A stretch of 64,000 nucleotides of DNA from Myxococcales bacterium (GTDB lineage: Bacteria > Myxococcota_A > Polyangia > Haliangiales > Haliangiaceae): contig CANKMW010000015.1 of NCBI GenBank assembly GCA_947483555.1, positions 26,425-90,424 of the forward strand, in the 5' to 3' direction. How positions within the stretch are numbered: the first letter of the stretch is position 1; each line of letters begins with the position of its first letter. Below the pieces are notes generated by a model. It did no database searches and had not been told where the DNA came from. It worked only from the letters and a program-made list of their open reading frames with translations. Positions 12,701 to 64,000 of the stretch are shown in pieces. The position numbers and the translations under genes were made by a program.

Positions 12701-14448
12701 ACGGGCTCGGCGTCCGGTTACCGCCGGGCTTGCCGCCGGCCCTGCTCGCGGAGGTCCCGGAGGCGCTGGTCGGCCTGTTCGCGCGCTGGGCCCGCACGCA
12801 CGGACCGTTCGCGCTCGATCAGGTGGCGGCGCGGTGGCAGCTGCCGCGCGGGGCGGTGGCGGCGATCGCCGATGCCGGCGTGAGCCGCGGCGAGCTGGTG
12901 TGCGGTGCGCTGCGGCCAGCGGCTGGCGGCGTGGGGCCGGCGCCGGGCGCCCTCGAGTACTGCGACGCCGAGGTGCTGCGCAAGCTGCGGCGGCGGACGC
13001 TGGTCCGGCTCCGCCGCCAGGTGGCGCCGATCGACGCCGCGGCGCTCGGGCGGTTCTTGCCCCGCTGGCAGGGCGTGGGCGCCGACGGTGGTGCCCGCCG
13101 CGGCCTGGGTGCGCTGCGCCAGGTGCTGCACCACCTCGAGGGCGCGCCGCTGCCGTTCGGCGAGCTGGAGGCACGCATCCTGCCGGCGCGGGTGCTCGAC
13201 TTCACGCCCCGCATGCTCGACGAGCTGGGTGCGATGGGCGAGCTGGTGTGGATCGGGCGCGGCGCGCCGGGCGCCCACGACGGCCGCGTGATGATCGTGC
13301 GCCGCGCGCGCGCCGGGTTGCTGATCGTACCCGGCGAGCTCCCCGAGGGTGCCGGTGAGCTGCCTCGAGCGATCGCGGCCCACCTGGCGTCGGCGGGTGC
13401 CTCGTTCCTGGTCGCGATCGAGGACCAGGTGCCCGGGCACGGGCGCGAGGCGGTGCGGGTGGCGCTGTGGGATCTGGTGTGGGCCGGCGTGGTGACCAAC
13501 GACACGTTCGCGCCGCTGCGCAGCCTGCGGACCAGGCCTCGCACCGCGAACGGCGTCGGCGGTCGCACCGGTCGCGCCGGTCGCGCCGGTCCCGGTGCCA
13601 GCTTCGGCGGTCGGTGGTCGCTGGTGGCGTCGCTGGTCGGGACGCCGTCGCCGTCACCGACGCAGCGGGTGCACGCGCTGGTCACGACCTTGCTCGATCG
13701 ATGGGGCGTGGTGACCCGCGAGGCGGCGGTCGCGGAGGAGGTGCCGGGCGGCTTCGCGGCGCTGGTGCCGGTGCTCGACGGGATGGAAGAGTCGGGCGCG
13801 CTACGCCGCGGCTACTTCATCGCCGGGCTGGGCGGCCGCCAGTATGCGTCGGCGGGCGCGGTGGATCGGCTGCGCAGCGACGCGGGTGGCGGCGCCGGCA
13901 CCGACGTCGTCGTCCTGGCGACCGTCGATCCGGCCAATCCCTGGGGCGCCGTGCTGCCGTGGCCGGCGCCGACCACGCGCCCCGACCCGGGACCGGCCGG
14001 CGGCGCGCGTCTGGCTCGCCGCAGCGGTGCCTTCGTGGTGCTGATCGACGGCGCGCCGGTGCTGCACGTCGAAGCGCGCGGCGGCCGCGTGGTGACGTTC
14101 GCGGGCCTCGGCGTCGAGGTCGTCGAGCGAGCGCTCGCGCGCGGGCTGCCGGCGATCGCCAGGGCGATGCGGCGCTCGTTCGTCGTCGAGTCGATCGACG
14201 GCGAGCGCACCTTGCTGGCGCGATGGGCGCCGGTGCTGGAGCGCGCCGGGTTCCGGAGGGACTACAAGGGGCACGTGGTGCCCGCAACCGCAGCCGCAGC
14301 CGACGCCGAAACCGACGCCGAAACCGACGCCGAAACCGAAACCGACGCCGAAACCGACGCCGAAACCGACGCCGAAACCGAAACCGAAACCGACGCCGAA
14401 ACCGACGCCGAAACCGAAACCGACGCCGACCTCGAGGAGAAACCGTGA
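9784..14448 (+). CDS. lhr: Lhr-family large ATP-dependent DEAD/DEAH helicase
   Basis: GTG start. Motifs are [14 protein letters not shown] (Walker A), VIVDEIHAL (DExH) and [12 protein letters not shown] (motif VI region), followed by the long Lhr C-terminal extension. The last ~50 codons are a GAAACC/GACGCC hexamer array translated as (ETDA)n. Confidence 0.9.
14284..14436. repeat. period-6 tandem repeat (GAAACC / GACGCC units, ~25 copies)
   Basis: The direct tandem array gccgaaaccgacgccgaaaccgacgcc... is visible in the sequence. It lies in-frame at the 3' end of lhr. Confidence 0.9.
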
Positions 14449-15425
14449 CCCGCACCGCATCCATCCTGCTGCTGCTCCTGCTGGCCTGTGGCCGCGAGCG
14501 GGCCACGCCAGCGGCGGCAGCGTGGCCGACGGCGCGCTCAGCGTGCGCAGCGCCCACCGGCCCGCGACACGACTGGCGACACCGTCGCAGCGAGCTGGTC
14601 GCACGGCTGGGCGACGCCCACCACGTGGCCAGCGACGCGATCGTCGCCGCTGGCGCGACGACCGAGCTGCACGGCAAGGTCGCGTACGGCAAGATCTCGA
14701 AGGACCTCGAGGAAGAGGACGTCGTGGTCTTCCTGTCGTCGGCCGGCCCGCGCGGCGACTGCGCGCCGCGCCAGCTCGGAACCGCGACCACCAACGACGA
14801 CGGGCGGGTGTCGTTCGACGCTGGCAAGCTGGCCGCCGGCTTCCACCGCTACTGGCTGATCGTCGCCGGCGACGGCACCACGGCCGAGGCCGGGGTCTGG
14901 GTCCTGCCGGGTCCGACGCCGGCGGTGATCTTCGACGTCGACGGGACGCTGACCACCAGCGACGGCGAGCTGTTCGACGACCTGATCGGCAGCGGCGCCG
15001 CCGCCTTCGACGGTGCCGCCGCGGTCGCGCAGCGCTGGGCCGACAAGGGCTACCTGATCGTCTACGTCACCGGTCGCCCGTATCCGCTGCGCGCACTCAC
15101 GCGGCGCTGGCTCGACGCCGGCGGCTTCCCCGACGGCCCGCTGTTCACGCCGGAACGCCTGCGCGACGGCGTGCCGACTCGCGACGGGGTCGGCGCCTAC
15201 AAGCGCGAGGCGTTCACCACCCTGCAAGCGAGCGGGTTGCGCGTCGTCCGCGCCTACGGCAACGCCGCGACCGACGTGTGCGCGTACGCGCAGGCCGGGA
15301 TTCCGCCCGCGCTCACGTACATCATCGGGACGCCCACGCCGTGCGATGCCTTCACGGTCCCGCATGCGCTCGCGGGCTATGTCGATCACCTCGCCGACGT
15401 CGAGCGCCAGCCGACGGTCCGGTGA
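14445..15425 (+). CDS. HAD-superfamily phosphatase-like lipoprotein
   Basis: The GTG start overlaps the lhr stop (GTGA). [16 protein letters not shown] is a signal peptide plus lipobox. The HAD motif I is [10 protein letters not shown] and a downstream YVTGRP motif is present. This resembles LNS2/App1-like lipid phosphatases. Confidence 0.65.
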
Positions 15426-61979: not shown

Positions 61980-61980
61980 C

Positions 61981-64000
61981 TCAGTCCCAGCCGTCGTCGA
62001 CGGCTTCCGCGGGCGCTGGTGCTGGCGCCTCCGCCGGTGCAGCGACCGCGATCTCCGCCGGTGCCGACACCGCGGCGTCAGGTGCCTTTGCGGCGGCCGG
62101 CGGCGGCGGTGCGGGCGGCGGTGCGGCGGGCGGCGGTGCGGCGGGCGGCGCGGTGGGCGGCCGGACCTGGACCCTGCTGGTGACCGCATCCGCCGCGGCG
62201 ACCACCGGCACACGCGACGTGATCGCCTCGGGCACCGGGATTGGAACCGCGACCGCGGCCACGGCTCGGGGCTTGGGTTCGGCCTTGGCGACGGTCTTGG
62301 TGACGGTTTCGGTGACGGTCACGGTTTCGGTGACGGTCACGGTTTCGGCCACGGCCACGGCTTCGGCCCCGGTTTCGGTCCCGGTTTCGGTCACGGGTTT
62401 GGCCACGGGTCCGGCCACGGGTTTGGCCACGGGTCTGGCCACGGTTTCGGCTGCAGCCACCGCTGCGGCCGCGGGCTTGGCCGCGTCGCCGCGCCGATCC
62501 CGCCGCTCGCGCCGCCGCGGGCCGTCCCCGCCACCGCCGCGCTCCTCGCGCCCACCGCGCTCCTCACGCCCGCGGCGCACCGGCTGTTCGTCGTCGCGTT
62601 GCGGCTCCGGCCCCGCCACCTGCGCGCACAGCGCCGCGAACCGCGCGGCGCTCGCTTCGGCGTCGTCGCCAACCAGCGGTCCAACCCCGCGCCACTCGGC
62701 GCGCAGCTCCTCGACGACGTCGAACGGATCGCGGCCGTCGTTCTTGAACAGCGCGTTGCGCTGCATGGCGTTCTTGAGCTGGGTCGCGATCTCCGCCGGC
62801 GACGCCGCCGCCGACACCGCGGGTGCGAGCTTCGGCAACAACGCCTCGACCGCCGCGATCAGCCTGGCGCGCCGGTTCGCCATCGCCACCGGGTCCAGCT
62901 CGCTACCTCGCAACGCGACGCCGTGTTCGACGATCGCGACCCGCAGCACGCGCTCGAACAGCGCCCGCAGATCGGCGCCCGGCGCGTCGCCGCGCTCGGT
63001 CATCTCGGTCACCCGTCGGCGCAGCGCCAGCGTGCGTCCGGCGACATCCTCGCCGCCGGCCAGCACCGACTCCATGTCGGCGCGCAGCGAGTCGATCTCG
63101 GCCCGCTGGGCGTCGGCCTCGGCGTCGCGGGCGGCATCGCGCTTGGCGAACAACCCGTCGCACGCGGTGCGAAACCGCTGCCACAGCGGCTCGACGTCGG
63201 CGCGCGGCACGCGCCCGATCTCCTTCCACGCCACGCCCATCGCCTTGATGTCGCCGATCGCCTTGCCCCAGCCACCCTCGCCGGGCGCCTGCGCGACCAC
63301 CGACTCGGCGCGCGCGATCAGCGCCTCCTTGGCGGCGGCGTTGTCCTTGAGCTCGCCGAGTTGCTCGTCGAGGATCGGCTTGCGGCGCTCGAAGAAGCGG
63401 TCACACGCGGCGCGGAAGGTCTGCCACAAGGCGTCGCCCTGCTGGCGCGGCACGTGGCCCGATTCCTTCCACTTCTGCTGCAGCACCTTGAGCGCCTGCG
63501 CCGTCGCCTCCCAGTCGGTCGACTCGGCCAGCGCCTCGGCCTCGGCGATCAACGCCTGCTTCACGGTGGCGGCCTCGGCGTGCTTGACGCCTTCGACGTC
63601 GCGCGCGGTCTTGATGCGCACGTAGGCGGCGTCGGTGTGGGCCTTGAACAGCTCCCACAGCTCCTTCGATTTCTTGCCCGGGATGGGGCCGACTTCCTTC
63701 CACGCCTTCTGCAGCTCCTTGAGGACCTCGAGGCGCGGGGTCTCGAGCTCGGCCAGCTCCTTGGCCATCGCCACCAGCGACTCGGCGCGCGGCACGTTGG
63801 CGAACCGTTTCCAGTCCTCGCTCTCGCGCAGCTCGCTGGCGCGCACCACCAGCTTGGCGCGAACCTCGTCGTAGCGGGCTTCGAGCCGGGCTCGCGCATC
63901 GGGCGCGGTGCGGCCGAGTTGCGCGAACGCGGTCCGCGCCTGTTCGAGCAAGCGGTCGATGGCGCGGCCGTCGCTGGCCTCGAGCAAGGTCGCCATCTCC
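61981..64000 (-). CDS. DUF349 repeat protein (partial, N-terminus beyond window end)
   Basis: Multiple DUF349 units are present (WKxxGxVPRxxxxxLWxRFRxACDxFFxRR). The C-terminal tail is encoded by a hexamer array (TETGTE...TVTVTETVTVTE) and ends in a PAAPPPA-rich stretch. Confidence 0.8.
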   Translation of the reverse strand, partial: EMATLLEASDGRAIDRLLEQARTAFAQLGRTAPDARARLEARYDEVRAKLVVRASELRESEDWKRFANVPRAESLVAMAKELAELETPRLEVLKELQKAWKEVGPIPGKKSKELWELFKAHTDAAYVRIKTARDVEGVKHAEAATVKQALIAEAEALAESTDWEATAQALKVLQQKWKESGHVPRQQGDALWQTFRAACDRFFERRKPILDEQLGELKDNAAAKEALIARAESVVAQAPGEGGWGKAIGDIKAMGVAWKEIGRVPRADVEPLWQRFRTACDGLFAKRDAARDAEADAQRAEIDSLRADMESVLAGGEDVAGRTLALRRRVTEMTERGDAPGADLRALFERVLRVAIVEHGVALRGSELDPVAMANRRARLIAAVEALLPKLAPAVSAAASPAEIATQLKNAMQRNALFKNDGRDPFDVVEELRAEWRGVGPLVGDDAEASAARFAALCAQVAGPEPQRDDEQPVRRGREERGGREERGGGGDGPRRRERRDRRGDAAKPAAAAVAAAETVARPVAKPVAGPVAKPVTETGTETGAEAVAVAETVTVTETVTVTETVTKTVAKAEPKPRAVAAVAVPIPVPEAITSRVPVVAAADAVTSRVQVRPPTAPPAAPPPAAPPPAPPPPAAAKAPDAAVSAPAEIAVAAPAEAPAPAPAEAVDDGWD
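62283..62460. repeat. period-6 tandem array (GGTTTC / GGTGAC / GGCCAC units)
   Basis: The array is visible in the sequence. It lies in-frame inside the 3' end of the DUF349 gene on the minus strand. Confidence 0.9.

Follow-up and report, generated by a model that had tools for sequence, protein, structure and literature searches.

In the phase-variable contingency loci of Haemophilus, Neisseria and Campylobacter, tandem units of 1–5 nt, which slip at a high rate, cause frameshifts or promoter-spacing changes in surface or restriction genes. The spacer of TonB is a repetitive dipeptide linker, (Glu-Pro)n/(Lys-Pro)n, and eukaryotic microsatellites start from seeds, expand, are interrupted by point mutations and give compound arrays, their CNG-type repeats forming hairpins. 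The tandem arrays described here, whose hexameric units are GAAACC (GGTTTC on the opposite strand) and its variants, lie in a 64,000-nt stretch of DNA from a Myxococcales bacterium (positions 26,425 to 90,424 of contig CANKMW010000015.1), hereafter called the window. They are probably hexanucleotide microsatellites, i.e. short-unit variable-number tandem repeats (VNTRs), which belong to one unit family and are a genomic trait of this myxobacterial lineage.

These arrays share with contingency loci the presence of short tandem repeats in or near genes, but their period of 6 cannot cause a frameshift and their host genes are of other types. As in the TonB spacer, the coding arrays yield flexible dipeptide-repeat linkers of variable length; however, the same DNA units are also found outside genes and their variation does not run along codon positions. 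In their life cycle, the arrays resemble eukaryotic microsatellites, and the derived unit CCGCAG/CTGCGG consists of two CNG triplets and folds into hairpins, although the setting is bacterial and the dominant parent unit does not form hairpins.

Short tandem repeats are generally suppressed in bacterial genomes, and simple sequence repeats (SSRs) of 6–9 nt have seldom been reported (PMC4692102; PMC4060949). Among bacterial SSRs that change by slipped-strand mispairing, the best-documented parallel is Burkholderia mallei, in which over 12,000 SSRs are spread over coding and intergenic DNA and undergo unit-step indels on passage (PMC1574311). The myxobacterial arrays resemble them in their head-to-tail short units in both kinds of DNA, in unit-step indels between near-identical genomes, in the location of arrays near promoters and palindromes and in a high-GC, large-genome host. 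In contrast, the motifs of the B. mallei SSRs are many and unrelated, reach 14 nt and match the genome in GC content (PMC1574311), whereas a single GAAACC-derived family (50% GC in a 72.6% GC genome) with a period that is nearly always 6 or a multiple of it dominates here, in a free-living myxobacterium and not in a host-adapted pathogen. Xanthomonas and Nostoc are likewise lineages with a strong enrichment of one motif family, in their case heptameric GGGNATC repeats (PMC4692102). However, they are G-rich, form quadruplexes and shift the frame with their period of 7, whereas the GAAACC unit is unstructured and its period of 6 keeps the frame. A search of the literature on SSRs in myxobacteria, on the motif strings and on VNTRs in Myxococcota found no description of the GAAACC family. 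The arrays are a modest extension of a known phenomenon, fast-evolving bacterial microsatellites, and not a new kind of element.

Seven arrays of a single family

All seven arrays named in a preliminary description of the window were recovered by Tandem Repeats Finder (TRF) and direct reading, with periods of 6, 12 or 18 and coordinates that are identical or shifted by a few bases:

14282–14429, plus strand: Lhr array, compound (CCGCAG)2-(CCGAAA/CCGACG)n with CCGAAA 12 times, CCGACG 9 times and CCGCAG twice (TRF, sequence, Pfam)
28942–28965, minus strand: short non-coding array of 4 copies, the plus strand reading GGTTTC GGCTTC GGTTTC GGGTTC (TRF, sequence, Pfam)
37094–37247, plus strand: non-coding compound array, (CCGCAG)13.8 and then the 18-mer (GCCGCAATCGAAACCGTC)4.3 (TRF, sequence)
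37486–37620, plus strand: non-coding compound array of CCGAAA, CCGTCG, CCGTAA, CCGTGA and further units, period 18 (TRF, sequence, open reading frames)
44119–44157, minus strand: non-coding (GGGCTC)6.5, which is (CCGAGC)n on the minus strand (TRF, sequence)
46684–46782, plus strand: MerR linker array, perfect (GAAACC)16.5 coding for (ET)16 (TRF, sequence, translation)
62280–62451, minus strand: DUF349 array, degenerate compound of CCGAAA, CCGTGG, CCGTGA and CCGTCA on the minus strand (TRF, sequence, translation, Pfam)

These arrays far exceed chance. None of 50 third-order Markov shuffles gave a period-6 array scoring ≥18, against three perfect and three compound ones in the window, whose GC content is 72.6%. 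The word GAAACC/GGTTTC occurs 58 times in the window; 47 of these occurrences fall within arrays that cover 1.4% of it, the other 11 correspond to background (9 ± 3 expected), and every tandem GAAACC dimer lies within an array. The repeats are non-random and the bare word outside arrays is not enriched, so that the expectation of an excess of the hexamer holds for the arrays themselves and not for the isolated word.

The proposal that the arrays form one related family also stands. Every array in the window but the ATGCCC array of the VIT-vWA gene (see below) fits the single register (CCG-NNN)n, equivalent to (G-NN-N-CC)n, and the arrays have the units CCGAAA, CCGACG, CCGCAG, CCGCAA, CCGTCG, CCGTAA, CCGTGA and CCGAGC in common. 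Both the Lhr array and the array at 37094 open with CCGCAA-CCGCAG-CCGCAG. The window holds head-to-tail runs of short units beyond chance, as do loci of microsatellites.

Three of the seven arrays are in frame within genes (Lhr, MerR and DUF349), and four are non-coding. Pfam upholds the identities of the Lhr, HEAT-cyclophilin, MerR, VIT-vWA, DUF349 and LysR genes. The Lhr array gives the helicase (gene 9784–14448) an acidic C-terminal tail, (DAET)n, only 9 nt being left before the stop codon. The MerR array lies in the linker of a MerR-family regulator (gene 46323–46985) and encodes an ET repeat as described, with 16 and not 17 copies. The DUF349 array lies within gene 61981–63996 and gives the peptide ...VTETGTETG...ETVTVTETVTVTET. 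In all three cases, the coding strand has GAAACC, with GAA-ACC as the reading, and the periods of 6, 12 or 18 preserve the reading frame, in agreement with the preliminary description.

Two of the non-coding arrays lie between convergent genes. The array at 28942–28965 is flanked by genes 27773–28927 (plus strand, AAA/DUF4143) and 28990–29628 (minus strand, cyclase domain), 14 nt past one stop codon and 24 nt from that of the convergent gene, and the array at 44119–44157 starts 11 nt past the stop codon of the LysR gene (43187–44107). The two others lie in one common 534-bp intergenic region. The first had rightly been placed upstream of the HEAT-cyclophilin lipoprotein gene (34881–37079, minus strand), but it starts at 37094 instead of 37088 and is separated from the ATG at 37079 by 14 nt instead of 9. 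This ATG is backed by an exact database record of the 732-aa product, whose N-terminus is the lipoprotein-type signal peptide MLARALLVSVLTSLAAGC. The second (37486–37620) begins 1 nt past the stop codon of an unlisted 68-aa gene (37614–37820, minus strand). The 37-kb arrays were also considered as extensions of their neighbours, through an open frame from GTG 37280 and a GF frame past the TGA of the 68-aa gene. This was rejected because period-6 arrays seldom hold stop codons in any frame, because ATG 37079 is the start of the recorded product, which opens with a signal peptide of the lipoprotein type, and because chance alone gives an in-frame match in one case out of three.

Variation at the level of DNA

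The codon usage of the arrays differs from that of their surroundings: Glu is encoded by GAA in 36 of 38 cases (95%) within arrays, against 60 of 677 (9%) outside, where GAG accounts for 91%. Unit variation was surveyed in 50 arrays, each with at least three in-register GAAACC units. As many as 384 of the 419 differences from GAAACC, which are counts of amplified copies and not of independent mutations, fall at A2, A3 and A4, about equally per site, and 88% of them are changes from A to G or C; G1, C5 and C6 are nearly invariant. As the three A positions vary equally while the three others hardly change, the variation follows base identity and not codon position, and this explains the constant CCG of the family.

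These data bear on whether selection acts on the proteins, i.e. whether acidic low-complexity linkers, (ET)n, (ETDA)n or (TVTE)n, are favoured and the likeness of the DNA is only a by-product. Such selection would fit the confidently intragenic arrays, which read ET in 3 of 3 cases in the window and in most cases in the Kofleriaceae metagenome-assembled genome (MAG) DATLEB01, as well as the retention of (ET)n with either GAA or GAG at the MerR site; the (EP)n/(KP)n linkers of the TonB type are a parallel. However, it would leave aside the same units in non-coding DNA, to which four window arrays out of seven belong, as well as about one third of the arrays in relatives (the noisy '5-prime' assignments of the classifier used for relatives were not relied on). 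It would also have to favour the strongly disfavoured GAA in 95% of cases. Moreover, positions 2 and 3 of the codon and position 1 of the following one vary to the same extent, and C6, which is a third position, does not vary; a coding signature would be the opposite. The frames PK, GF, VS and RN are also seen in relatives. Protein-level selection as the source of the arrays is therefore highly improbable and already largely contradicted. Where they lie in proteins, the arrays are lineage-specific linkers or tails.

Turnover and copy-number change in relatives

Array positions differ among the window and the syntenic loci L119 and L120. The array downstream of the LysR gene is missing in both relatives, where the corresponding gap is 0–3 bp, and arrays are found there instead within genes for a kinase and for an amidase. 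The MerR linker stands apart: hypervariable in homologues, it carries an array in every close lineage, with a content that differs each time:

Window: (GAAACC)16
L124: mixed GAAACC/GAGACC, 11 units, and (GCATCC)5
L120: about 6 GAAACC
L119 and L122: (GAATCC)3(GAACCC)3-4
L125: GCGTCT/GCGCCT blocks, (GCGTCT/GCGCCT)n
Nannocystis punicea: no array, a lone GAA-ACC at the start of the linker

Two pairs of close relatives differ by exactly one unit. L122 and L119, which come from different metagenomes, share 99.9% identity over 8,723 bp and their sole gap is one 6-bp unit in an array. L018 and L032, which represent the same locus in one MAG bin, align with a sole gap of one GGTTTC unit, which falls in a non-coding array flanked by convergent genes. 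Whole-unit steps in copy number between close genomes, which are expected of microsatellites, are thus found in relatives of the window organism; the slippage anticipated in the preliminary description does occur in the family, and invariance of the arrays across strains is contradicted for these relatives. The two contigs of the latter pair (L018 1–504 and L032 1–498, both from DATLEB01) are about 97% identical for one locus, and the DATLEB01 bin therefore mixes at least two strains or haplotypes.

Arrays also appear to arise within sequences that were already there. Lhr homologues stop short of the array, right past the last conserved motif, and the C-terminus of the closest one, ...ATA..DLEE, brackets the (DAET)n tail of the window protein; the Lhr array therefore expanded in place. 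An all-against-all BLAST comparison of flanks matched only orthologous or duplicate loci and found no flanks common to the arrays. A mobile element similar to repetitive extragenic palindromic (REP) sequences or miniature inverted-repeat transposable elements was rejected on these grounds, as the arrays have no common flanks and the sole palindromic element (37270–37440) occurs once in the window and not beside each array. Conserved flanks and transposition signatures are lacking, and the Lhr tail and the MerR linker represent expansion within pre-existing sequence.

As the source looks like a MAG contig, the repeats could in principle have been created or mis-sized during short-read assembly or binning. 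Short-read MAG contigs of the clade often begin or end in a perfect hexamer array of about 95–150 bp (L025 1–94; L062 1–96; L014 4520–4622; L038 989–1141; the end of L001), and contig L001, from an assembly of the strain of the window, terminates inside the GGGCTC array. Copy numbers of perfect arrays could hence be imprecise; the arrays fragment short-read assemblies and their true lengths may be underestimated. Yet these breaks also confirm that long perfect repeats exist in the organisms. Similar arrays are found in independent assemblies, including multi-megabase contigs and whole-chromosome records (OZ245758.1, CAWKDB010000010.1), the 37486–37612 array has an exact match in a separate short-read assembly of the same strain (contig L118), and the coding arrays keep the reading frame and the flanking phase of GC content at third codon positions. 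An artefact is extremely improbable. The array-bearing Lhr, MerR and DUF349 proteins (9784–14448, 46323–46985 and 61981–63996) had no exact match in a collection of 15 billion proteins, in which four array-free neighbour proteins had exact matches from a 167-kb NCBI/ENA contig and a short-read run, each in a single-member cluster, and a homology search gave no near-identical MerR. Differing start calls, or genes left uncalled on repeat sequence, may account for the missing records of the array proteins.

Distribution among genomes

A scan for (GAAACC)4 in one genome per species (185,579 species) gave at least 116 blocks of 8 kb, all per-genome figures being lower bounds. Among the matches listed, at least 39 blocks come from 16 Myxococcota genomes (two of them labelled only delta-proteobacterial). 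DATLEB01 has arrays of at least four GAAACC in at least 18 separate 8-kb blocks and the Polyangiales genome OZ245758 has (GAAACC)4 in at least 5, whereas nearly all the other genomes among the matches listed have one block each and are scattered over many phyla. The single matches in Gammaproteobacteria are probably (KP)n linkers, (AAACCG)n being read as KP. The median length of the matched array is 95 bp at myxobacterial loci versus 38 bp elsewhere. The window has 9.4 arrays per 100 kb; arrays additional to the matched one amount to 4.5 per 100 kb in myxobacterial blocks and 1.8 in non-myxobacterial ones.

DATLEB01 is syntenic with the window for the genes of cyt-bd oxidase, LysR, metallophosphatase, MerR, VIT-vWA and amidase, and its arrays have the same units, including CCGCAG/CCGCAA+CCGAAA compounds, both within genes (mostly ET) and between genes. 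Several of its contigs begin or terminate within an array. In 334 kb chosen by MerR homology and not by motif, 10 of 18 arrays have period 6 and are clustered in the closest relatives; the MerR homologues come from MAGs labelled Kofleriaceae and from Nannocystis (60–69% identity). The source of the window appears to be a myxobacterial MAG of the Kofleriaceae/Nannocystaceae type. Related arrays with other units are found in the chromosome-level Polyangiales assembly OZ245758.1 (about 60% GC) at L070 4891–4970 and L094 4385–4674, namely (GGTTTG)13, which is (CAAACC)n, and a 290-bp (CCGAAC)22/(CCGAAA)16. The family therefore reaches beyond high-GC Kofleriaceae.

The density of arrays had been called unusual for bacteria. 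It is indeed above that of control genomes (9.4 versus 1.8 additional arrays per 100 kb), but abundant SSRs are documented elsewhere, for instance in Burkholderia mallei (PMC1574311). What is unusual is the single AT-richer unit family, as a lineage trait of certain Myxococcota.

One unit dominates many loci in several genomes despite its higher AT content and its inability to form hairpins, and all the other units can be derived from it, which would also be compatible with a motif-specific generating process. In place of slippage from chance seeds, the arrays would then be produced by an enzyme or by a repair pathway that has a fixed template or a strong preference (templated addition, a peculiarity of polymerase or mismatch repair). 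However, neither a gene associated with the arrays nor conserved flanks nor signs of insertion were found, the lone GAA-ACC in the MerR linker of Nannocystis and the short tail of the closest Lhr homologue fit expansion in place, and sporadic (GAAACC)n arrays occur in many unrelated phyla. Such a replacement of slippage is very unlikely.

Predicted hairpins and neighbouring genes

Neither strand of the parent unit folds (about −1 kcal/mol for GAAACC and GGTTTC), and hairpin-driven expansion of this unit was therefore rejected. Among the derived units, CTGCGG and GGGCTC have one self-complementary strand each. A transcript of the minus-strand (CUGCGG)13 is predicted to form a hairpin of about 40 bp located 14 nt upstream of the HEAT-cyclophilin AUG (z −6.7), and one of (GGGCUC)6.5 a 20-bp RNA hairpin just past the LysR stop codon (z −5.3). 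No significant RNA structure was found at the 28942–28965 and 37486–37620 arrays. Effects of the predicted hairpins on expression are conceivable from these folds.

The arrays could also be adaptive contingency or tuning loci, copy number being selected to tune the length of linkers and, through leader or 3'-end arrays, the expression of neighbours; changes in linker length and in spacing had been named in the preliminary description. Unit-step variation in the family, the array 14 nt upstream of a start codon with its predicted strong leader hairpin, the other predicted hairpin past the LysR stop codon and the presence of an array in the MerR linker of every close lineage would all suit this proposal. 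Against it, units with periods of 6, 12 or 18 cannot switch a frame on or off. The claim that promoter and leader arrays vary spacing is not supported either, since no promoter-like hexamers were found at the 37-kb arrays (neither a sigma-70-like promoter nor a terminator was found in 36900–37950) and two of the intergenic arrays lie at the 3' ends of convergent genes. The genes involved encode Lhr helicase, MerR, DUF349, LysR, HEAT-cyclophilin lipoprotein and cyclase; the hosts Lhr, MerR and DUF349 are housekeeping or regulatory, not the surface, virulence or restriction-modification genes typical of contingency loci. Furthermore, array positions are not conserved between syntenic relatives, and the use of rare codons together with a decay driven by base identity points to little sequence selection. 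Adaptive tuning is consequently rather unlikely.

The two arrays at 37 kb are separated by a spacer of another nature:

37270–37440, no strand assigned: palindromic structured spacer outside the hexamer family, with inverted repeats and an RNA fold of z −4.4

This spacer holds nested inverted repeats, e.g. CACCCTGAGCGAG/CTCGCTCAGGGTG and GCGCCCTTCGACTCG/CGAGTCGAAGGGCGC, and folds far better than shuffled sequences. No further copy of its motif was found in the window or in 121 fetched loci, and no Rfam family reached the gathering score anywhere in the window. It may resemble the REP-like palindromic elements of other soil bacteria. In a comparison with iterons, which are protein-binding direct repeats of 17–22 bp beside a replication or partition gene, an 18-bp periodicity is seen on either side (37171–37247 and 37486–37620), where the units are triplets of family hexamers, with no rep- or par-type gene alongside.

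Other features of the window

The MerR-family and VIT-vWA genes (46323–49537) are a conserved pair in the window, L119, L120, L121, L122 and L125, and they overlap by ATGA in the window. Upstream of the MerR gene, the divergent intergenic region 46240–46322 is AT-rich (about 35–45% GC) and holds TTGACA followed by two copies of ACAGTGTCA, which make TGACAGTGTCA dyads; judging by these motifs, it resembles a promoter and operator of the MerR type. The VIT-vWA gene has an array of its own at its start:

46985–47007, plus strand: VIT-vWA start array, (ATGCCC)3.8, with a unit outside the GAAACC family (TRF, sequence)

This array, which had been linked to the hexamer family, is real and encodes MMPMPMPMP with five in-frame ATG codons, but its unit is another one and it is a separate slippage array. 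Its copy number varies, the window reading MMPMPMPMPI, relatives MMPMPLPI and MMPMPI, and Nannocystis MMPTAL. Other GC-rich tandem repeats with periods of 27, 12–15 and 30 occur at 60213–60302, 62090–62161, 58492–58564 and 8987–9053 (e.g. CCGGAGGCGGCGGCGGTGCCGGAACCA with 3.1 copies and GCGGCGGGCGGC with 6); these do not belong to the GAAACC family and probably represent low-complexity coding sequence.

A model for the life cycle of the arrays

Taken as microsatellites, the arrays can be viewed as follows. They would begin as runs of GAAACC, for which the lone GAA-ACC at the start of the Nannocystis MerR linker may serve as a comparison, and would grow or shrink by one 6-bp unit through slipped-strand mispairing during replication or repair. 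Substitutions would then accrue almost solely at the three A positions, mostly towards G or C. The variant units would be amplified in turn, leading to compounds such as (GCAGCC)n, (GAGCCC)n and (GACGCC)n and to the apparent 'CCG + NNN' design. As the period is a multiple of three, arrays would be tolerated in disordered parts of proteins, where they would mostly give (Glu-Thr)n and similar linkers and tails of acidic or hydrophilic character, and they would persist as well in intergenic DNA beside gene ends. The arrays may be close to neutral, and the hairpins that derived CUGCGG and GGGCUC units would create in the HEAT-cyclophilin leader and at the LysR 3' end may be a side effect.

Several points weigh against this microsatellite model. 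Unit-step variation is known from relatives alone, as the protein clusters of the window have single members and the one independent assembly is of the same strain. The survey of unit variation counted amplified copies, and the genome-scan figures are lower bounds from genomes sampled in an unclear order. The (ET)n of the MerR site, which is found in three lineages with GAA and GAG codons, fits some protein-level selection at this site. Finally, slippage alone does not explain the dominance of a 50% GC unit in 72% GC genomes, and neither strand of this unit has the potential to form hairpins. A process specific to the motif, which in certain Myxococcota (Kofleriaceae/Nannocystaceae-type and some Polyangiales) would seed GAAACC/GGTTTC or favour its expansion across the genome, would fill this gap, the candidates being a clade-specific peculiarity of replication or repair and a templated addition of units; it is decidedly unlikely. 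If it were true, an unstructured AT-richer hexamer would be the parent of hundreds of arrays per genome that decay to GC-rich derivatives, and the clade would allow microsatellite birth and death to be followed naturally in bacteria.

Significance

As microsatellites, the arrays have practical consequences for the study of this clade: they break short-read assemblies, can lead to mis-sized proteins in MAGs and could serve as VNTR strain-typing markers for uncultured myxobacteria. For the organisms themselves, the GAAACC family is a ready source of variation in the length of linkers and tails (Lhr, MerR, DUF349) and creates predicted hairpins beside genes. The occurrence of one hexamer family across the genes and spacers of a free-living lineage with large genomes indicates that bacteria can have microsatellite dynamics like those of eukaryotes.

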